This document shows, in pieces, positions 625 through 63,781 of a stretch of 64,000 bases of DNA (the first letter of the stretch is position 1; each line of letters opens with the position of its first letter). The stretch is from a virus (lineage: Duplodnaviria; Heunggongvirae; Uroviricota; Caudoviricetes), in the IMG/VR virus record IMGVR_UViG_3300034160_000140, one strand, 5' to 3'. The notes below the pieces were generated by a model. It was not told the origin of the DNA. It saw nothing but the letters and a program-made list of their open reading frames with translations, and ran no database searches. The translations under genes and the position numbers were made by a program.

Positions 625-1509
625 ATGACAAAGAAATATATTTTAGTGCTAATTGCTCTATCCAGTTTAGGCACTATATCGCAAGCTGATTATCAAATTA
701 GAATTCCAATTCAACAGGCAATCTCTTTCAAGGATGTTACTTCTGGGGGTGGATCAGGCGGTAGTGGCGGCAATGGTAATGGTGGCAGCAACGGTGGTGG
801 TGGATTAGTTTTTACTGACCCTACTATATTAGCTGCTTATGAGGAAAAGTGTGGAGCATTTCCTAACAAAATAAATCCGTTGGCTGATCCTATACGAGAC
901 TATGACATTAGTTGTGGTGATTATTCAAATAGAGATCTTTCTGGTTATGTGCTTGATAAAACAGGTATGCTTTTTACTAATTTTGCAAATTCAATATTAG
1001 ATGGAGCTATATTAGGTGATTCTAGCTTGGCTAACAGTAATCTATCAGGAGCATCCTTAATAGGTGCTCAGTTTACCGTAAATGGCGAAAGCACTACATT
1101 AACGAATGCTGATATTAGTAATGCTAACTTAACAAATGCTTATATGAACAAATCATATTTAGAAAAAACTAATTTTACTGACTCTAATTTAACAGGTGCT
1201 GTATTAACTAACACTAGTTTTGTTGGTGCAAACTTGAAAAATGCTAACTTAACGAATACTAATTTTGACACTTCCTATGTTATTGATACGAATTTTACTA
1301 GTTCAAATTTTACAGGAGCCACATTAACTAATACTGCATTTATTAATACTAATTTTACTAACGCAAATTTGATTGGAGCTGATCTCAGCACCAGTGCGTT
1401 CAGCAATGTTGATTTCACTAATATCTTGTATGATGCGACCACAAAATGGCCTTCATGGTACACACCACCACAATCTAGTAATGGATATCAGTTCACACCG
1501 CAATGGTAA
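625..1509 (+). CDS. secreted pentapeptide-repeat protein; Gly-rich linker; N-terminal module shared with the secreted modular family
   Basis: Signal peptide ...ISQA/DYQIRIP; GGGSGGSGGNGNGG linker; long run of A(D/N)LxN/SxxNLTGA pentapeptide repeats (seen directly); GAGG Shine-Dalgarno site. Confidence 0.6.
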   Translation: MTKKYILVLIALSSLGTISQADYQIRIPIQQAISFKDVTSGGGSGGSGGNGNGGSNGGGGLVFTDPTILAAYEEKCGAFPNKINPLADPIRDYDISCGDYSNRDLSGYVLDKTGMLFTNFANSILDGAILGDSSLANSNLSGASLIGAQFTVNGESTTLTNADISNANLTNAYMNKSYLEKTNFTDSNLTGAVLTNTSFVGANLKNANLTNTNFDTSYVIDTNFTSSNFTGATLTNTAFINTNFTNANLIGADLSTSAFSNVDFTNILYDATTKWPSWYTPPQSSNGYQFTPQW

Positions 1510-3680: not shown

Positions 3681-3699
3681 TTTGACGGTTACTGTAAAA

Positions 3700-3727
3700 A
3701 AAGAGAAGCTTAGGCTTCTTTTTTTTG
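3700..3727 (+). terminator. rho-independent terminator
   Basis: agaagcttaggcttct hairpin followed by a T8 run. Confidence 0.7.
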
Positions 3728-3815
3728 TACATTTTGTTTATACATTTTGTTAAGTCATATAATTGACACATATGAAATTACTTGTATTATAGTATTAACA
3801 ATAATAATAAAAATC

Positions 3816-4760
3816 ATGTACATTAAAAAATTGCTCTTAGTTCCTGCACTTTCATTGTTAGGAATGAATTCTTTCGCAGAATATCAAATACAATATCCAG
3901 ATGTTCCCGTTATCTTTAAAGATCTTGGTAAATGGGTTCCGGCTAATCCTATAATCTCTACTTGGGTTAATGTAGGCACTCCACATGATTGTCAAAGTGC
4001 TTCGCCACTTGAGAACACACAACAACTGGGTTTGTCATATGAAAAAACATTTTCAGGCTGCAAACAAGCACAAGAAAGAACTGTAACTACTTCTGAAAAA
4101 CAGACGTTTACAGGTGCTGTTCGTAATCAAGTGAGCACAAAAGAAACACAAGTGTTAACTAATGCTAGTTATAAAGTTAATTCTATTGGAACTACTGATT
4201 TTGGTCAATGGTTACAAACTGCTCCAGTTTATACAGGTTGGGTAAATCTTGAATCTCCACATGATTGTACAAGTGCTATACCACTTGAAAATACACAAAC
4301 ACTTAATTCAACTTATGTAAAAACATTTTCTGGTTGCACACAGTCACAGGAACGCACTGTCACAACTTCTGAAAAGAATACTGTTACAGGTGTTGTTCGT
4401 AACGTAGTTAATACTAAGGAAAATCAAGTTCTCACTAATGTAACTTATACTGCAAATGCAATAGGAACAAAGGTTGTTAAAGAATGTGGTTACTCAGCAG
4501 TCAGTGGACATGCTTACAGATGGTATGATATTGCCACTTATGATGGTTATACAACTACTTATGGAATGGGGTTACAATGGGATGGTTCTACTAAAATTGA
4601 TACCACAAACATTAGTAAGACTTACCCTAAAGCAGCAACTTTTGTGAATGGTGGTTATACTTATACTCGCGGTGCATTTAAAGAAAAAGGTTCACATTAT
4701 GACGGTCTACGTTCATACTATTATTACTATGAAGTGTGTAGAGAACCAATTGCACCATAA
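3816..4760 (+). CDS. secreted modular-family protein with two tandem Cys-pair repeat domains
   Basis: Signal peptide ...MNSFA/EYQIQYP; internal ~85-aa repeat WVN.G.PHDC.SA.PLENTQ...FSGC.Q.QERTVTTSEK..TG.VRN.V.TKE.QVLTN occurs twice; C-terminal YYYEVCREP tail shared by the family. Confidence 0.6.
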   Translation: MYIKKLLLVPALSLLGMNSFAEYQIQYPDVPVIFKDLGKWVPANPIISTWVNVGTPHDCQSASPLENTQQLGLSYEKTFSGCKQAQERTVTTSEKQTFTGAVRNQVSTKETQVLTNASYKVNSIGTTDFGQWLQTAPVYTGWVNLESPHDCTSAIPLENTQTLNSTYVKTFSGCTQSQERTVTTSEKNTVTGVVRNVVNTKENQVLTNVTYTANAIGTKVVKECGYSAVSGHAYRWYDIATYDGYTTTYGMGLQWDGSTKIDTTNISKTYPKAATFVNGGYTYTRGAFKEKGSHYDGLRSYYYYYEVCREPIAP

Positions 4761-4886
4761 TTGAAAAACAAAAAGAAGCTTCGGCTTCTTTTTTCTTGCT
4801 TAAAATAAGATTTTTAGGTATAATGACCTTATTGAAATCCACTATAAATATTGCCGAAAGGCATACTTTTAAAACGGAATATTAAC

Positions 4887-20002: not shown

Positions 20003-20470
20003 TTAAAGGTTAGGATAGCGGCATATTTTATAGTAGTTATACTTGGTATCAGCTCTATTAAATGATCCTAATACATAAGTGTATTGACCAGAAACAAATG
20101 GAAAATACTTATTTTGTGTGTATACGCTATCAATCAATATGGCATTAGACCATTTGATATATCTAATCATTCCTGTTGGATAAGGTTTTGATGTATTAAA
20201 TGTCATTGCATAGTTAGAACTTTCTGAATAGTTTTGGCATGTATAACCTGCCCTATCTTCGTCCTTTGGTGGCACTGGTGGTTCAGGAATTACAGGGACT
20301 TCTGGCTCAGGCGGTATTGGTGGTGTTTCTGGATTTGTAGGCGGTTTGATCTTTGAAAATACGATGTCACCTTCATTTAAGTGAGCTTTTGGATGAATGA
20401 CCACTTGATAACTTGCATTCGCTATTGTTGTTACAGCCAATAAAGAGGCTATCATTATTATTTTTTTCAT
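20003..20470 (-). CDS. secreted modular-family protein (Pro-rich linker variant)
   Basis: Signal peptide ...TIANA/SYQVVIHP; PETPPIPPEPEVPVIPEPPVPP linker; C-terminal ...YNYYKICRYPNL family tail. Confidence 0.55.
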   Translation of the reverse strand: MKKIIMIASLLAVTTIANASYQVVIHPKAHLNEGDIVFSKIKPPTNPETPPIPPEPEVPVIPEPPVPPKDEDRAGYTCQNYSESSNYAMTFNTSKPYPTGMIRYIKWSNAILIDSVYTQNKYFPFVSGQYTYVLGSFNRADTKYNYYKICRYPNL

Positions 20471-20620
20471 ATTTTATTTTTATTGTTCTTAATATTATAA
20501 TACATCTGTTTAATAAAAAAACAACATAGCCAGTAATTACGGAAGTTTTTCTAAAAAAATATTGTCATTTTTCAGTTTTTGTTGTATAATTATTCCACAC
20601 TTATGTTGAGAGGATTTACC

Positions 20621-21644: not shown

Positions 21645-22766
21645 ATGTCCAGCATCTTCCCGCGTATTGAAACCCTTGATGATATGCTTCCTCACATCAA
21701 AGACCGTGCCTATATTTCTGTTAATAAACAGGATAACGGTGCCAACATCGTTTGCTATAACATCAGCAACGGCGACTCTTTCAACACTCCGGTTGAAAAG
21801 GAAGCTCGCGGTATTACCTTTGACGACAACGGTAAAATCCTGTCGCGTCCATTGCACAAATTCTTCAACTTGGCAGAGCGTGCAGAAGTCCAACCAGCCG
21901 TTTTGGATTGGAACACGATGGTCGCCGGGTTTGATAAAATGGATGGCTCCATGATTACCACAGGGCTGTTCAACGGCGAATTTTTTGCTAAGTCCAAGAA
22001 GTCTTTCAAATCGGATGTGGCTGTTTCTGCAGAAAGTTTTGTGTCTCGTAACCAGAAATACTACGAGTTCACCAAATATTGCTCTCAGGCCCAACTGACC
22101 CCTATTTTTGAATTCACTTCGCCAAAACATCGTATCGTTTTGCGTTATGACGAAGACAACATGACACTTCTTCATGTTCGTCACAACATCACAGGCGATT
22201 ACTTAATGCCTGCTGACAAAGACCAACTGGCGTTGTTGTTTGATATTCCTGTTAACAAGCCACTGTTTGGTGAAGAATTTGATTTGGCTGCTTTATTGAA
22301 GTCGCTGAACACTGTTGAAGGGATTGAAGGCTACGTTATTCAGTTCGTTAACGGTAACATGATCAAAATCAAAACCAAATGGTATATGAACCTCCATCAT
22401 GCGGTTAGCTTTGTTCGTGAACGTGATATTGCTCGGTTGGTGGTTGAAGAAAAACTTGATGATTATATCGCTTATTTGTCGCTGAACTCGCCAACGGCTG
22501 ATTTGAGTGAGATTTATCGAATCAATGACGCTATCAAAGCTTCGATTGAAGCGTTGTCGAAAGAAGTTGATGATATTGCTGCTGAATTCCAAGGTGTTGA
22601 TGTGAAAACTGCAGCAATTCAGCTTAAAGGCCATAAACACTTTGGTTTTGTTATGGGTGCAATTCGTGGTCACAAAAACGACTACCTGTATCACTACTCT
22701 AAAAACCATCTGGTGGATTGGTCGTTGGAACAAATTGAGCTTGGCGACTTGTCAGCTCCGGTTTAA
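21645..22766 (+). CDS. rnlA: RNA ligase, T4 Rnl1 (gp63) family, paralog 1
   Basis: Nucleotidyltransferase motifs in T4 Rnl1 order: FDKMDGSM (motif I Lys), HKFFNLAE, EFTSPKHRIVLRY, GIEGYVIQF (motif IV), MIKIKTKWY (motif V); similar length (373 aa) to T4 Rnl1. Confidence 0.75.
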   Translation: MSSIFPRIETLDDMLPHIKDRAYISVNKQDNGANIVCYNISNGDSFNTPVEKEARGITFDDNGKILSRPLHKFFNLAERAEVQPAVLDWNTMVAGFDKMDGSMITTGLFNGEFFAKSKKSFKSDVAVSAESFVSRNQKYYEFTKYCSQAQLTPIFEFTSPKHRIVLRYDEDNMTLLHVRHNITGDYLMPADKDQLALLFDIPVNKPLFGEEFDLAALLKSLNTVEGIEGYVIQFVNGNMIKIKTKWYMNLHHAVSFVRERDIARLVVEEKLDDYIAYLSLNSPTADLSEIYRINDAIKASIEALSKEVDDIAAEFQGVDVKTAAIQLKGHKHFGFVMGAIRGHKNDYLYHYSKNHLVDWSLEQIELGDLSAPV

Positions 22767-23732: not shown

Positions 23733-24854
23733 ATGACTTATCAACAAGAACTGTATGCCCAACTGATGAACCTGTTGGTGACGAATCCGGGGTCGTTCAA
23801 ATACCGTGATGAAACCTCGGCAGTAGACGGCGGGACTTACCGTGTCTTCAACTATGACATTCCAAAGCACTCCGAATTCAAACTTCCGGGTGCTAAGGAT
23901 TGCCGTGGGGTCATGTTCTACATGGGCGGTGATGATCCAGTGCTGGTTGCATTGCCTATGCAGAAATTTTTCTCGCTCGGTGAAACCCCAGAGACTCAAA
24001 AGATCAAGCCAGAAGAAGCGGATCATGCTTACTTGAAGCCGGACGGTTCCTTGCTGACCAGCTATATCTCGCCGGTTAACAATACGCTTTACTACAAGAG
24101 CAAAAAGAAGCCAACTTTTGCCGATTATGACCTTGTTGAGAAGTCTATCAGCCCTGAGTTGCACGCTGACATTGAGCGTCTGACCCGCACAGGTATTTCT
24201 GTTGACTTGGAATTGACCACGCCCAAAAACCGCGTGTTCATTGAATACACTGATTACGCTGTTCATATCCTAAAAGCCCGTGATATGAGCACTGGTGCTT
24301 ATGTTGATATTCGTTCGGCTGAATTCGCTGCCAAATACCCGGTTATTGCGGCCCATTTGGTGAAACGTATCCCTATCAATGAACTCAACGTCAATGACCC
24401 TGAGATTGAGGGTTATGTGGTTGAATTTGGCACTGACATGTATAAGGTGAAGACAATTCCTTACCTGAAAATGTCGGCAGTTGTCAACATTCAGGATCGG
24501 TCGAAGGAACGTCAGGTTATTTATGAAGCAACCCTTCACGAAATTCTGGATGAAATCCGTTCGTTGTATCACTACCGGACGCACAGCGACAACTTCCCAC
24601 TGGCTGAAATTCTGGCTCGCTTGGATGAAGTAGAAGACTATGCACGTAAAAGCTACCATTACCTTGTTCGCACGGTCGATAGCTTCCACAATGAGCATAA
24701 AGGTCTGGAACGTGGCGATTACGCTCGTAAAGCCAAAGAAGTGGCTCCATTGCTTCTGTCGGTGTTGATGAGCAAGTTTTCGGGTGATGAGATTGATTAC
24801 AAACAAGCTGCTATCATGGTATTTGCTCGTAAACAAGTGCCTATTCCCGAGTAA
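23733..24854 (+). CDS. rnlA: RNA ligase, T4 Rnl1 (gp63) family, paralog 2
   Basis: DCRGVMF, MQKFFSLGE, YLKPDGSL (KxDG motif I), DLELTTPKNRVFIEY, EIEGYVVEF, MYKVKTIPY. These line up with T4 Rnl1 ECRGIMF / MEKFFNL / KEDGSL / NFEFVAPTNRIVLAY / NIEGYVAV / HFKIKSDWY. Confidence 0.85.
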   Translation: MTYQQELYAQLMNLLVTNPGSFKYRDETSAVDGGTYRVFNYDIPKHSEFKLPGAKDCRGVMFYMGGDDPVLVALPMQKFFSLGETPETQKIKPEEADHAYLKPDGSLLTSYISPVNNTLYYKSKKKPTFADYDLVEKSISPELHADIERLTRTGISVDLELTTPKNRVFIEYTDYAVHILKARDMSTGAYVDIRSAEFAAKYPVIAAHLVKRIPINELNVNDPEIEGYVVEFGTDMYKVKTIPYLKMSAVVNIQDRSKERQVIYEATLHEILDEIRSLYHYRTHSDNFPLAEILARLDEVEDYARKSYHYLVRTVDSFHNEHKGLERGDYARKAKEVAPLLLSVLMSKFSGDEIDYKQAAIMVFARKQVPIPE

Positions 24855-29719: not shown

Positions 29720-30514
29720 ATGTCTAGGTGTCTTCACATGTCTATCAATCCCAAAGGTGTTTACGATACGTTTTATAAGGACACCTATATTCCTTTGAGT
29801 GAAACGATTGTTCGGCTGAATATGCTGGCTGCCTTCATTGAAAGAAAATCATGTTTTCTTGATGCAAAAAAAGCACACATGACGGCTGATGATCAGACTG
29901 GTCGCAAGGAAAACACTGATCAGTGCAGTATCATGGAGTGGGCTGCACAAGATCCGGTTTTTAATGCCAAGGGATTGTGGTTGACTGACAAACAAAGCAC
30001 TGACAGTAAAGATTTTGTGCCGTCGCCCTACCCCCATTTTAAAACTTTTTACAATCTCTCTTTTGCACCTTCTGCGAAGACGAAAGAAGACGCCACTGAA
30101 TTTCATGGTAACTTTATTCCTTTGCCTGTTTTCTTTGGATTGCATCCAGCCGTGTATAAATACCTGATGTCAGCTCTTAACTACGAGTATGATTTTGGTA
30201 TTTTCAGACACTCTATCATTTTCTGGCTACAACAACTTCAAATTCCAGAAAGTTACTGGTCGAAACTTGACCTTTCAGAAACACATAAGTTTTTTAGATT
30301 CGGCCCTAATGATATGGTAAAACGTATTCGTTTTTTTATCAGCCTACTTGAACAATCTCCATTGACCAGCAGCTATGAAGCTACTTATGAGTTGTTAGGC
30401 TATCAAGAATGGGATCTTGAGAGACAATCCAAAAGCATGTCCACCAAAATCAAAAACTTCATAAAAAAAAGACCCGCACTTAATTTTTTGACATCTTTTT
30501 CTAAATCATCTTGA
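29720..30514 (+). CDS. hypothetical protein (start uncertain: 29720 or 29738)
   Basis: Promoter tgGTATAAT at ~29697; no clear Shine-Dalgarno site. Confidence 0.45.
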   Translation: MSRCLHMSINPKGVYDTFYKDTYIPLSETIVRLNMLAAFIERKSCFLDAKKAHMTADDQTGRKENTDQCSIMEWAAQDPVFNAKGLWLTDKQSTDSKDFVPSPYPHFKTFYNLSFAPSAKTKEDATEFHGNFIPLPVFFGLHPAVYKYLMSALNYEYDFGIFRHSIIFWLQQLQIPESYWSKLDLSETHKFFRFGPNDMVKRIRFFISLLEQSPLTSSYEATYELLGYQEWDLERQSKSMSTKIKNFIKKRPALNFLTSFSKSS

Positions 30515-43513: not shown

Positions 43514-44380
43514 TTAGTTAACTTGGCAAACTTGATATCCGCCTGATTGATATGGCCCACGTCTGTATAGTTTACCATCAGTTCCTCTTACATCTGGATA
43601 GTTAGTTAAGTAGTCTGGATTGACATAATTTCTATATACAACATTACCTTGCCATAAAACAGTTAATTCTGTAATGTAACCTTCATCTTCTTGATAACCC
43701 CATTCATAAGAACTCCATGCGAAGTTACATACTGTCGCTGGTTTTGTTCCAATACTTGTTCTGGTTGATGTGGTTGTAATGGATTGATTTTCAATAGTCG
43801 ATGATCCTACATTTCTTATCACATTTGTGGTTGTTTCTTGTTCACGATTTTGTTTGCTACGAGTTTGAGGTTGCTTACAATCCGTTGCAGTTTGTGTGAA
43901 TGATTGACCAGATGTGACCGTTGATGTGGCTGGACTCCAGTTCGTGCAGCTTGTTACAGCCCCACTATTAACCCATGTTGTGACATCAGCAGCAATCGCC
44001 ACCCATGTTTCTAATGTGCCTACAGCACTCCGTGTTTGAGTTGTGTTAATACTTTGGGATTCATTGTAAGGATTTCCAATGTTACGAATACTGCCTGAAA
44101 CATTATCAACTTCTCGATCTTGCACTGTTCTGGTTTGATCTTGCTTACAGTCGTTTGCTGTTTGTGTAAACGTATTTCCGATGGTTATTGCAGATACTGC
44201 AGGACTCCAATTTAAACATGAATGCACACTTCCTGTGTTTTCCCAATCGCCATACAATGGAGAATTTGCAGTCCAACTGGCAAATCTTACTGGTTCATCT
44301 AAGTTAAATTTAACAATATATTCAGCTTGTATTATGCCACCAGCTAATGCCAGCGTTAATGATAGTAATGTTTTTTTCAT
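43514..44380 (-). CDS. secreted modular-family protein with two Cys-pair repeat domains
   Basis: Signal peptide ...GGIIQA/EYIVKF; two copies of W.N(T/S)G.V.SC.NWSP..S....G..FTQTA.DCKQ.QTR..Q.RE; C-terminal ...GGYQVCQVN tail. Confidence 0.6.
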   Translation of the reverse strand: MKKTLLSLTLALAGGIIQAEYIVKFNLDEPVRFASWTANSPLYGDWENTGSVHSCLNWSPAVSAITIGNTFTQTANDCKQDQTRTVQDREVDNVSGSIRNIGNPYNESQSINTTQTRSAVGTLETWVAIAADVTTWVNSGAVTSCTNWSPATSTVTSGQSFTQTATDCKQPQTRSKQNREQETTTNVIRNVGSSTIENQSITTTSTRTSIGTKPATVCNFAWSSYEWGYQEDEGYITELTVLWQGNVVYRNYVNPDYLTNYPDVRGTDGKLYRRGPYQSGGYQVCQVN

Positions 44381-44643
44381 AAATATTTTATTATTTTTTT
44401 ATATTTTAACATACAATAATATAAATGGAAGATATTAAACTAAAAAAAACTTTTAATTTTGCTTAATTAACAATATAATTATGTGTATTTTACATATATT
44501 TATTTTGTAATATTGAGTTGAATGTTGTAATTTTATTGTTACCTATTTTAATGGGATGCTGTCAGCAATATCCTTAGATGATATTTTTGCTTTTGTCAAT
44601 TTATAATTCATATAACTATTTGAAAAATAAGCTAAAAAAGTTC

Positions 44644-44835: not shown

Positions 44836-44921
44836 GCCCGAGTGGTGAAATGGTAGACACGGGAGACTTAAAATCTCCTTCTCGTGAGGGAGTGCCGGTT
44901 CGAGTCCGGCCTCGGGCACCA
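44836..44921 (+). tRNA. tRNA-Leu (anticodon UAA), 86 nt with long variable arm and encoded CCA
   Basis: Manual fold: acceptor GCCCGAG/CTCGGGC, 3-bp D stem, anticodon stem GGAGA/TCTCC with loop CTTAAAA, 15-nt variable arm, T arm GCCGG-TTCGAGT-CCGGC. Confidence 0.85.
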
Positions 44922-45187: not shown

Positions 45188-45264
45188 GGGACTTTAGCTC
45201 AGTTGGTTAGAGCAACCGACTCATAATCGGCAGGTCACAGGTTCAAGTCCTGTAAGTCCCACCA
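45188..45264 (+). tRNA. tRNA with CAU anticodon (Met, or Ile2 if C34 is modified), 77 nt with encoded CCA
   Basis: Manual fold: acceptor GGGACTT/AAGTCCC, D arm GCTC-AGTTGGTTA-GAGC, anticodon loop CTCATAA, T arm ACAGG-TTCAAGT-CCTGT. Confidence 0.85.
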
Positions 45265-61021: not shown

Positions 61022-61633
61022 TTACATTGGCACTCTACATACAGTCCATATTGACGAGTATCCAGAGTTACTAGTAATAGTTCCTTTTTTATAGGTATAG
61101 GTTCCAACAACTTTTTCAGTTGCTGCATATTCGCCACCACTATACACTAAGGTACCAGCCCATTTTATATTAAGAAGTGCATATGCTGGAGAACCTGCTG
61201 TCCAACTAGAATCAGCAACATTACATTCCTCAACAGTCTTTGTTCCAATAGCTGTTCGGGTAGTTGTTTGATTTTTTAATGTTTGACTCTCATTTTTTAT
61301 AGACCCAACATTTCTATATTCATGACTGACATTGTTTTGCTCTCTTTCCTGCACTGTTCTGGTTTGCTCTTGATTACACCCACTACCAGTTTGAGGAAAG
61401 GATACTCCCATATTTACTGTGTTGGTGTCTGGTGTCCATGCTGTGCATCCTGTTGGAGAACCCACATTGACCCATGAACTCAATAATGGGGCGGAACTTA
61501 ACCATTTACTTACAAAACTAATATTTTCACCATTAATTTGTTTTTCACCGTATATAACTTGGTAATTTGCGTTTGCACTAGCCATTATACCTAATAAAGC
61601 AAATGGCAATATCATTAAACTTGTTTTTTTCAT
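61022..61633 (-). CDS. secreted modular-family protein (one Cys-pair domain), tandem-array member 1
   Basis: Signal peptide ...MASANA/NYQVIYGEKQINGENISFVSKWLSS; WVNVGSPTGCTAWTPD...FPQTGSGCNQEQTRTVQEREQNN; C-terminal ...YKKGTITSNSGYSSIWTVCRVPM. Confidence 0.6.
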   Translation of the reverse strand: MKKTSLMILPFALLGIMASANANYQVIYGEKQINGENISFVSKWLSSAPLLSSWVNVGSPTGCTAWTPDTNTVNMGVSFPQTGSGCNQEQTRTVQEREQNNVSHEYRNVGSIKNESQTLKNQTTTRTAIGTKTVEECNVADSSWTAGSPAYALLNIKWAGTLVYSGGEYAATEKVVGTYTYKKGTITSNSGYSSIWTVCRVPM

Positions 61634-61667
61634 ATCTTACTCATTATTATTATTATTGATTTAAAAT

Positions 61668-62075
61668 TTATATTTTTTCTCTACATATTGTATAGGTATA
61701 ACTACTACCAGAACCACCTACTAGATCACTTCCTCTAGTATATTTGTAACCATCAATAACTTTTTCGGTTGCTAAATAGTCACCATCTACACTTATTTGA
61801 ACACCACCCCATGATAAAGCAAGCACAGCATATGAAGGAGAACCAGCCGTCCAAGACGCAAAATTGGATGGTGTTTCTCTTACACTGCATTCTTTTCCTG
61901 AGCCACTTGGTGGAACAGATGGCCCAGATCCAGAATTAGAATCATTTGTAACAAACTTTATGTTATCACCATTTATTTGTTTTTCACCATAAACAACCAT
62001 GTATGACGCATTCGCCATTGTTGTAATACTTAATAAACCCAATACTGTTATTATTTTTTTTATATTTGCTATCAT
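61668..62075 (-). CDS. secreted modular-family protein (short; Ser/Gly/Pro linker, no Cys-pair domain), array member 2
   Basis: Signal peptide ...TTMANA/SYMVVYGEKQINGDNIKFVTN; C-terminal ...YKYTRGSDLVGGSGSSYTYTICREKI. Confidence 0.55.
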   Translation of the reverse strand: MIANIKKIITVLGLLSITTMANASYMVVYGEKQINGDNIKFVTNDSNSGSGPSVPPSGSGKECSVRETPSNFASWTAGSPSYAVLALSWGGVQISVDGDYLATEKVIDGYKYTRGSDLVGGSGSSYTYTICREKI

Positions 62076-62140
62076 TTTAATCTTCTTTATTTATTGTTAT
62101 TTATATATCGCATTACATTTAGTTAAAATTAGTATACTTT

Positions 62141-62185
62141 TTATTATATTGGAACTCTACAAACGCTATGGAATGTGTAATAACC
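62141..62185. repeat. 45-nt exact repeat (3' end plus 3' flank of a secreted gene), copy A
   Basis: ttattatattggaactctacaaacgctatggaatgtgtaataacc is identical at 62863..62907. Confidence 0.8.
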
Positions 62186-62770
62186 TGCGTTAGCAGTTTG
62201 AGCACCTTTGGTATATTTATATCCATTATACGTGTATTCTGTTAAGTAGATATTGCCACTGTCAGGGAATACTTTTACACCTTCCCACATAACATACATA
62301 ACACCGAATGATGGTGTGCCATTAACCCAGCGTGTATTTTGATCTTTTGAACATTCTTCAATGACCTTTGTTCCGTTTGCAGAACGGGTTAGTGTTTGAT
62401 TAGTTAGCGTTTGATTCTCATTTTTAACAGAACCTAAATTTCTGGACTCTCCACTGACATTATTTTTCTCTCTTTCCTGAACTGTTCTTGTTTGATTTTG
62501 ACTGCATCCAGTAGCTGTTTGATCAAAGGTCACTCCAATATTTTTTGTGCTTACGTCTGGTGTCCATGCTGAACAACCTGTTGGAGAACCTACATTTGTC
62601 CAGTTACCTAACAATGGATCAGAACTTAACCATTTGCTTACAAAACTAATATTGTCACCATTAATTTGTTTTTCACCATAAACTACAGTGTAGGATGGTT
62701 CTTTTGCTTGTGCATTAACTGCCAAACCTAGCAAAGCTAACGATAGTATTTTTATCATTGATTTTTTCAT
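62144..62770 (-). CDS. secreted modular-family protein (one Cys-pair domain), array member 3
   Basis: Signal peptide ...AVNAQA/KEPSYTVVYGEKQINGDNISFVSKWLSS; WTNVGSPTGCSAWTPD...FDQTATGCSQNQTRTVQEREKNN; C-terminal ...YKYTKGAQTANAGYYTFHSVCRVPI. Confidence 0.6.
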   Translation of the reverse strand: MKKSMIKILSLALLGLAVNAQAKEPSYTVVYGEKQINGDNISFVSKWLSSDPLLGNWTNVGSPTGCSAWTPDVSTKNIGVTFDQTATGCSQNQTRTVQEREKNNVSGESRNLGSVKNENQTLTNQTLTRSANGTKVIEECSKDQNTRWVNGTPSFGVMYVMWEGVKVFPDSGNIYLTEYTYNGYKYTKGAQTANAGYYTFHSVCRVPI

Positions 62771-62862
62771 TTAATCTCTCATATCTTATTATTATTGTTA
62801 TTTATATATTATCATGTGTTTTCCTAATTGAAATACTTTAATGCTAATATATTTATTATCAT

Positions 62863-62907
62863 TTATTATATTGGAACTCTACAAACGCTATGGAATGTGT
62901 AATAACC
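62863..62907. repeat. 45-nt exact repeat, copy B
   Basis: Identical to 62141..62185; similarity (~88%) continues through the C-terminal coding half. Confidence 0.8.
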
Positions 62908-63489
62908 ATAGTTAGCAGTTAATGCACCTTTAGTGTATTTATATCCATTATAGGTATATTCTGTTAAGTTAATATTACCAATATCAGGGAATACTTTTAC
63001 ACCTTCCCACATGATATACATCATACTCATTGATGGTGTGCCATTAACCCAACGTGTGTTCATATCTTTTGAACATTCATCCACAACCTTTGTTCCATTT
63101 GCCGAACGGGTTATTGTCTGATTAGTGAGTGTTTGTGATTCATTTATTGGATTGCCAATAGGTCGAAATGCTAACGTATAATTGTTTTGTTCTCTGTTCT
63201 GGACTGTTCTCGATTGTTCTTGTTCGCAGTCACTGGCTGTTTGGTCAAAAGTTATTCCAATTGCCATTGTGCTCGGGTCAGGTGTCCAACCAGAACAACC
63301 AGATGGAGAGCCTACATCAGCCCATGCTGATATTTCTGGTGATGCTTTTATCCACTTGCCTTTTTTGACAAACGTGATGTTGTCTCCATTGATTTGTTTC
63401 TCTCCATATATAGCAGTATATGAAGCATTTGCTGTTAATGCAGTGCTCGCTAAAAGGGCACTTGTTAACATAAGTATTGTCTTTTTCAT
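62866..63489 (-). CDS. secreted modular-family protein (one Cys-pair domain), array member 4
   Basis: Signal peptide ...ALTANA/SYTAIYGEKQINGDNITFVKKGKW; WADVGSPSGCSGWTPD...FDQTASDCEQEQSRTVQNREQNN; C-terminal half (from ECSKD..NTRWVNGTPS to YTFHSVCRVPI) nearly identical to 62144..62770. Confidence 0.6.
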   Translation of the reverse strand: MKKTILMLTSALLASTALTANASYTAIYGEKQINGDNITFVKKGKWIKASPEISAWADVGSPSGCSGWTPDPSTMAIGITFDQTASDCEQEQSRTVQNREQNNYTLAFRPIGNPINESQTLTNQTITRSANGTKVVDECSKDMNTRWVNGTPSMSMMYIMWEGVKVFPDIGNINLTEYTYNGYKYTKGALTANYGYYTFHSVCRVPI

Positions 63490-63781
63490 ACTAATATTAT
63501 TATTATTATCTTACTACAAATTTAACACATTTTAGATAAAATCAAATATAAAAACGCACAATTATAGCTTAATATATAAGGTTTTATATTAAAAACACTT
63601 ATTATGGTTTGATATTGTTTTTTATAAAGTTTTTTATTTAATCAACATTAAAACTATAAAAAATAAAACAACAACACCTCTAAAAATATTTATCAAATTC
63701 TTATAAATTTCATAAAAAGCTTCCATTTCAGAGGTTTTCTTGCTATAATTTGGTTACTTTAGTGAGGTTGGAGCTTTCATC

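Follow-up and report, generated by a model that had tools for sequence, protein, structure and literature searches.

Periscope Proteins carry a cell-surface anchor and a ligand-binding domain at opposite ends of a repeat array, which forms an extended rod (PMC8201768). In this study, we analysed a 64,000-nucleotide stretch of IMG/VR virus record IMGVR_UViG_3300034160_000140 (Duplodnaviria; Heunggongvirae; Uroviricota; Caudoviricetes), the whole of which is called the window below, and in particular its gene A (3816..4760), which encodes a predicted exported protein with two tandem copies of a cysteine-containing unit. The unit is an undescribed domain family, although its kind is already known, namely the tandem stalk repeats of exported bacterial proteins. 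We regard as the best explanation, and as somewhat probable, that gene A belongs to a family of exported proteins in which the units form a stiff, disulfide-clamped stalk and a Cys-clamped head at its end carries the specificity.

The comparison with described systems extends to the G5-E repeats of SasG and Aap. Like the modelled unit, these repeats are three-stranded beta-sheets of elongated shape that occur in tandem in an exported protein and vary in copy number between homologs, and the proposed role is also alike, as a stalk holding out a functional domain at its end (PMC8201768; PMC9999234). The Pfam G5 model (PF07501) has no match in protein A or in its paralog B at E ≤ 1. As in the Periscope Proteins, the number of repeats varies between homologs, from zero to two in the window and up to 26 in the wider family; whereas Periscope Proteins contain long, highly identical DNA repeats (PMC8201768), the units of A have diverged to 71% identity in DNA and 64-65% in protein.

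A tandem unit with a conserved cysteine pair

The initial annotation described two near-perfect repeats of about 85 residues and about 65% identity in gene A. The segments that it quoted (residues 51-133 and 143-225; nucleotides 3963-4211 and 4239-4487) are indeed tandem repeats of that identity, with 54 of 83 residues (65.1%) and 71.1% of the DNA positions identical, and the local BLOSUM62 score between the repeats of A is 284, compared with 32 ± 6 and a maximum of 58 in 500 shuffles. However, the period is 92 residues rather than 85; the similarity starts ten residues before the quoted segments, at W40 and W132, and the two full units align without gaps with 56 of 87 residues identical. Nor are the copies near-perfect. 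The number of synonymous substitutions per synonymous site (dS) between them is about 1.1 and the ratio of nonsynonymous to synonymous rates (dN/dS) is 0.24, and the units are therefore an old duplication kept by purifying selection.

Each repeat does hold exactly two Cys, as had been claimed. They are Cys59 and Cys82 in the first unit and Cys151 and Cys174 in the second, at a spacing of 23 in both, and a further pair, Cys224 and Cys308, flanks the C-terminal domain. Paralog B, for which the same organisation had been proposed, has the layout of A, with units of 90 and 92 residues (45 of 87 identical), unit Cys at 55/78 and 145/168, and a head flanked by Cys218 and Cys285. The seven unit copies within the window align with 15 invariant columns. 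The pattern of the family is W-x9-W-x-N-x-G ... C-x22-C-x-Q-x-Q-x-R ... G-T over about 77-92 residues, and Trp stands at positions 1 and 11 of the unit and, in most copies, also at 23. The window units fit the definition of the family used here, which is a significant match to the unit profile together with paired Cys, or an aromatic pair in their stead, at profile positions 20 and 43.

Two lines of evidence bear on the fold. The AlphaFold2 model of mature A, built from a 32-sequence alignment, has a mean predicted local distance difference test score (pLDDT) of 89.3 and a predicted template-modelling score (pTM) of 0.40. In each modelled unit, short N-terminal strands are followed by a hairpin with about 23 residues per strand (53-75/81-104 and 145-167/173-195); the sole low-confidence part is the N-terminal motif of the mature protein (N-motif), with pLDDT 48-75 over the first 20 residues. 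Covariation was computed as mutual information with average product correction over 903 distinct unit copies (effective number 775). The top covarying pair is C20-C43, and 25 of the 30 top pairs fall on two anti-diagonals picked after the data had been viewed, where 12% would be expected: i+j of about 59-64, which pairs strand A with strand B, and about 115-123, which pairs strand B with strand C. The agreement between model and covariation supports a predicted A-B-C antiparallel meander with a very long hairpin, against which an irregular N-terminal strand with the conserved Trp would pack.

One disulfide per unit had been suggested by the initial annotation; such a bond, which would join strand A to strand B, is strongly supported by the strand register and the covariation. 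Among 862 aligned copies, both Cys are present in 743, neither in 116 and a single one in only 3, and the pair lies on the same antiparallel register as the other pairs between strands A and B. This indirect evidence goes against the refuting condition of the initial annotation, two Cys too far apart to pair. The Cys-less copies (about 13%, e.g., those of the P0073 type) have Y, H or F at position 20 and Y or F at position 43, where two aromatic residues seem to stand in for the disulfide.

An Ig-like or lectin-like fold, for which the initial annotation had proposed to look by structure prediction, was rejected for the unit, as the model gives an elongated three-stranded sheet and its nearest structural neighbours are the stalk repeats of SasG and Aap. 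All structural neighbours are weak; the SasG G5-E-G5 and Aap B-repeat hits in the PDB were obtained with Foldseek at E of 1e-3 to 1e-2 and probability up to 0.99, and with low template-modelling scores.

Family, common plan and carriers

Five further paralogs (C to G) were found by tblastn of A and B against the window (Table 1). All seven share one plan, which consists of a signal peptide, an N-motif, zero to two units and a head. The claim of the initial annotation that gene A is secreted agrees with the predicted N-terminal signal peptide with an A-x-A-type cleavage site in 7/7 paralogs. The N-motif, about 15-20 residues long and strand-like, follows directly after the cleavage site (e.g., SY.VVYGEKQINGDNI.FV or EYQIQYPDVPVIF), and the head, of 67-91 residues in the paralogs, has Cys at its start and end (C...vCRvPi). 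The copy number of 0, 1 or 2 across paralogs that had been put forward is also borne out: D and G have no unit, C, E and F have one, and A and B have two. In the zero-unit paralog D, the units are replaced by the linker NDSNSGSGPSVPPSGSGK.

Known models do not account for these proteins. Neither A nor B has a significant match in Pfam, PHROGs, NCBIfam or the PADLOC defence models, and the unit and head profiles have none among PDB sequences. A full-text literature search by unit sequence motifs returned no paper, and the megaplasmid papers do not mention the family.

An exhaustive search with a hidden Markov model profile made from the seven window units gave a far larger family, with 681 representative proteins matched at E ≤ 1e-3 and 163 at E ≤ 1e-30. 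Among the 215 proteins that were fetched for detailed study, hmmsearch recognised about 880-900 unit copies, usually with periods of 88-90, 81-82 or 77 residues. The largest arrays comprise 26 stretches (P0071, 2195 residues), 25 (P0130) and 23 (P0069), and a typical relative has its first unit no more than 50 residues from the N-terminus and a C-terminal tail of 50-150 residues. A head of the window type is present in 88 of the 215, behind zero to nine units; other units are partnered by Peptidase_S8 with I9 and He_PIG, by F5/8 type C, by LRR or by Y_Y_Y/ChitinaseA_N domains. A word-indexed search gave about 65 close relatives with zero to four units, all of them unnamed or 'hypothetical'.

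The annotated records that carry the unit are large plasmids only. With B as the tblastn query, 106 plasmid records were matched (92 from Pseudomonas, 13 from Vibrio and 1 from Stutzerimonas); these include the 972-kb pMPPla107, on which unit matches occur at 22 places, as well as P. aeruginosa megaplasmids of the pBT2436/IncP-2 type and pQBR103. Protein A matched nine Vibrio plasmids of 300-370 kb. Among species-representative genomes, a single locus was found, on the 971-kb P. fluorescens plasmid pMPCFBP13716 (E = 1e-27), in a scan by two narrow peptide patterns from which absence from chromosomes does not follow. By contrast, no homolog was found in 50,697 phage records by megablast and tblastn, or in IMG/VR when the unit alignment and protein A served as queries. 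A protein identical to A is encoded on a JGI metagenome contig of 1,917,244 bp (JGI 3300034157, Ga0370506_000001, record 1384076-1405020), from which the window derives; further contigs, of 1.84 Mb, 1.07 Mb and 0.77 Mb, carry orthologs at 70-80% identity. The family is unusual in its association with very large extrachromosomal elements.

The megaplasmid proteins WP_054068201.1 (981 residues) and WP_044298824.1 (224 residues) of pMPPla107 and WP_019437248.1 of pBT2436 are true sequence homologs of the unit, and several megaplasmid homologs agree with the window proteins in overall plan and in having the Cys-clamped head. They differ in that their hosts have 54-56% G+C, that the AAT-repeat leader of the window genes (see below) is missing, including from the Pseudomonas homologs, and that some have a different C-terminal domain or an additional Ig-like one. 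None has been characterised, and most are annotated as 'hypothetical protein'. For WP_019437248.1 (locus L009, 7500-8537, of pBT2436, NZ_CP039989.1; also at locus L006), denoted an 'Ig-like domain-containing protein', the annotated start is probably too late, and the in-frame stretch MFANLKAVAAAFILAAVTTTVSA upstream of it resembles a signal peptide. On IncP-2-type megaplasmids this gene stands directly after a prepilin-type gene, a position that might indicate a link with a pilus.

Stalk, binding module, polymer or virion part

The unit is most likely a stiff spacer that carries a small C-terminal head. We read it as such because linkers take its place in the zero-unit paralogs, because its nearest predicted folds are stalk-like, and because arrays of it occur beside unrelated functional domains. 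The 26-unit arrays and the occurrence of the window-type head behind zero to nine units were counted for the same role. In the proposed mechanism, the family proteins would be exported by Sec, whereupon a host periplasmic oxidase would form one disulfide in each unit and one across the head. In the manner of fibrillar adhesins and Periscope Proteins (PMC8201768), the units would then stack head to tail into a stiff stalk, their number setting the distance from the N-terminal end to the head, and specificity would be carried by the head and not by the unit. Copy number may change through in-register recombination between units, since in the one-unit relative P0014 the body resembles unit 1 and the end resembles unit 2. 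Our best guess for the role of these proteins is envelope or surface recognition, in the form of adhesion, partner-cell recognition or exclusion. The initial annotation had compared the repeat to a modular binding domain. Its modular character holds, with zero to two copies in the window, three to four in close relatives and up to 26 in the family, whereas the reading as a binding domain is probably wrong, since the stalk-like fold, the linkers and the partner domains fit a spacer.

Several observations weigh against the spacer reading. The pTM of the model leaves the relative orientation of the domains, and hence rod-like stacking, open. The covariation that agrees with the model is subject to the choice of bands mentioned above, and kinship among sequences inflates such scores, although the pattern is regular. 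No lipobox, LPXTG/sortase motif, beta-barrel or transmembrane segment that could serve as an anchor was seen in the paralog sequences, and the head could be matched to no known fold or ligand. Units and head evolve at similar rates (mean pairwise identity of 0.79 and 0.74, respectively, among 13 orthologs), and therefore there is no signal for the head as the fast-evolving specificity part; in the pair E and F, the head looks better conserved than the unit, as judged by eye. Furthermore, the unit has conserved polar residues (Q45, Q47, R49, E55, R64, E71 and Q73) that could build a binding face just as well as an internal ladder.

These invariant, surface-type polar residues speak for a reading in which the unit itself is the ligand-binding module, lectin- or adhesin-like, with copy number tuning avidity and the head as an accessory, a reading that we consider unlikely. 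It also gains from a faint likeness to thrombospondin type-1 repeats (TSRs), which are binding modules. The TSP1_2 model (PF23260), an animal-type model of a SEMA5B-like TSR, matches 8 of 44 diverse unit copies (best E 8e-5), and the multi-unit relatives P0073 (61 bits) and P0182 (30 bits) exceed its gathering score of 27 through summed partial matches, always at profile positions 30-64; P0129, at 25.1 bits, is just below. Some unit subtypes start with W-S-x-W-S. Proteins A and B have no TSP match in Pfam even at E ≤ 1, and when the unit profile was compared by hhalign with a hand-typed alignment of canonical TSRs, the probability was 1%. In contrast to the TSR, which has six Cys in three disulfides within about 55-60 residues, the unit has two Cys in about 90; the W-x-x-W-x-x-W of the TSR faces R-x-R-x-R, whereas the Trp of the unit are 10-12 residues apart, although a strand B of the Q-x-Q-x-R-x-R type is present. 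The resemblance is topological; a distant link is possible, and membership is not claimed. A stronger version, in which the unit is a prokaryotic relative of the TSR and the family a diversifying envelope recognition set for partner-cell recognition, competitor exclusion or attachment in transfer, confined to very large extrachromosomal elements that range from megaplasmids of 300 kb to 1 Mb to the 1.9-Mb element of the window, seems to us quite unlikely. As for the unit as a binder in general, the zero-unit paralogs retain N-motif and head with low-complexity sequence in place of the unit, arrays of up to 26 nearly identical-type units are typical of stalks, as are the repeats nearest in fold, and the covariation of R49 with position 72 and of E55 with R64 fits an internal ladder across the predicted hairpin.

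Two other explanations concern the assembly to which the proteins might belong. In all paralogs and in many relatives, the N-motif that comes after the cleavage site is a conserved, strand-like segment in which hydrophobic residues alternate, and its low pLDDT is what would be expected of a segment that needs a partner. It is conceivable that the N-motif of one molecule completes the head of the next in an extracellular polymer, as in the donor-strand exchange of pili, so that the units set the length of the subunit, and the prepilin-type gene next to the homolog on pBT2436-type megaplasmids would suit such an arrangement. However, no chaperone or usher genes were seen in the window, and N-motif and head types are uncoupled, P0068 and P0023 having the same N-motif and different C-termini; we consider the polymer very unlikely. 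The proteins could also belong to the virion of a giant phage, as fibres or decoration proteins, given that elongated beta-rich repeats are common in fibres and that the window resembles a phage accessory region in its many small open reading frames (ORFs), its RNA ligases, HNH endonuclease and tRNAs and its PHROG families. This reading, and with it that of a phage structural protein, was rejected as extremely improbable: the virions of tailed phages assemble in the cytoplasm, but proteins with cleavable Sec signal peptides and conserved disulfides are to be expected in the periplasm or farther out; the known carriers are plasmids; and there was neither a homolog in the 50,697 phage records or IMG/VR nor a PHROG match.

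Genomic setting and significance

The features of gene A, its paralogs and selected neighbours are collected in Table 1. Gene A starts with the ATG at 3816, and its stop codon occupies 4758-4760. A longer ORF with a TTG start at 3747 is unlikely to be the gene, because the near-consensus sigma-70 promoter lies inside it and because a typical signal peptide begins with the ATG of gene A. A terminator of the upstream gene is located at 3697-3726, ahead of the gene A promoter, and with that promoter and the downstream terminator it indicates that gene A is its own transcription unit. A lipoprotein reading of A was rejected, as there is no Cys at the cleavage site.

Table 1. Positions of gene A, its paralogs and other features in the window
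Feature	Position (nt)	Strand	Description
Pentapeptide-repeat protein	625-1509	+	Pfam E 8e-28
Promoter-like site, sigma-70 type	3763..3790	+	TTGACA-16-TATTAT, 11/12 match; 5' of gene A
Short A/T-rich leader	3797..3815	+	AACAATAATAATAAAAATC; no Shine-Dalgarno; AAT-repeat leader common to all seven paralogs
Gene A	3816..4760	+	314 aa; signal peptide, N-motif, two units, C-terminal head
Signal peptide of A	3816..3878	+	MYIKKLLLVPALSLLGMNSFA, followed by EY...; read from the sequence, cleavage site placed by the A-x-A rule
N-motif of mature A	3879..3932	+	EYQIQYPDVPVIFKDLGK; low confidence in the structure model
Unit 1 of A	3933..4208	+	aa 40-131, Cys59-Cys82; from alignment and model
Unit 2 of A	4209..4484	+	aa 132-223, Cys151-Cys174; from alignment and model
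Head of A	4485..4757	+	C-terminal, all-beta domain between Cys224 and Cys308 (C...vCRxP)
Intrinsic terminator	4770..4793	+	downstream of gene A
Paralog G	20003..20470	-	155 aa, no unit; Pro-rich linker PTNPETPPIPPEPEVPVIPEPPVPP between N-motif and head
T4 Rnl1-type RNA ligase genes	21645-22766 and 23733-24854	+	neighbouring
Paralog B	43514..44380	-	288 aa, two units (44006-44275, 43730-44005) and head (43517-43729)
tRNA-Leu(TAA) and tRNA-Met(CAT) genes	44836-44921 and 45188-45264	+	
Paralog C	61022..61633	-	203 aa, one unit (61226-61504) and head
Paralog D	61668..62075	-	135 aa, no unit; Gly/Ser/Pro linker between N-motif and head
Paralog E	62144..62770	-	208 aa, one unit (62354-62632) and head
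Paralog F	62866..63489	-	207 aa, one unit (63076-63354) and head
AAT-repeat leaders	3797-3815, 20471-20484, 44381-44398, 61634-61657, 62076-62101, 62771-62802, 63490-63510		of the seven paralogs

The seven paralogs have in common an AAT-repeat leader (AACAATAATAATAA...) without a Shine-Dalgarno motif, whereas such a motif is clear in about 60 of the 99 window ORFs. The motif AATAATAATAA, with at most one mismatch, occurs 23 times in the window compared with 4.9 expected, mostly at the seven leader sites. The AAT leader suggests that the paralogs may share a distinct mode of expression. Paralogs B to G lie on the minus strand, which is the minority strand of the window (83 of the 99 ORFs are on the plus strand). 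Another short sequence, TATAAATA, which we take to be the T4 late promoter consensus, is present at 12 sites compared with 3.7 expected (e.g., 62098-62105 and 62799-62806 on the minus strand); two copies lie just 5' of paralogs D and E, and two lie within E and F, where they code for the conserved Y-K-Y of the head.

The window as a whole contains about 99 ORFs, small and mostly of unassigned function, which include two T4-type RNA ligases, an HNH endonuclease, NUDIX, GNAT and SPFH-domain proteins; there are also two tRNAs, and about 30 PHROG families are matched. The best phage match of the RNA ligases is in the Ralstonia jumbo phage RsoM2USA (42% identity), and on pMPPla107 an RNA 2'-phosphotransferase is encoded near one unit-bearing gene. 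The pentapeptide-repeat protein has 38 N-terminal residues similar to the gene A signal peptide (47% identity, tblastn), and the element may export this protein as well. The source contig may be a giant plasmid, a phage-like element or part of a chromosome; for an element of 1.9 Mb, a 64-kb window with phage-like genes and no cellular housekeeping gene would be unusual. When other window genes were compared with plasmids, the RNA ligase gene at 21645 matched unrelated plasmids only and the ORF at 29720 matched none; as neither has homologs on pMPPla107-type plasmids, the window element does not simply belong to this plasmid family.

The unit is an unannotated domain that is present in hundreds of protein clusters and recurs on clinically and agriculturally relevant megaplasmids of Pseudomonas and Vibrio (pBT2436/IncP-2 type, pMPPla107 and pQBR103). 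Multi-unit relatives may be found automatically annotated as thrombospondin-like, and a link to the TSR, if true, would bear on the origin of a major adhesion module of animals. Most genes on these plasmids are 'hypothetical', and the family, with its 22 places on pMPPla107 and seven genes in the window, offers a handle on the envelope role of such elements. As pMPPla107 is tractable by experiment, the function of the family is directly testable there.

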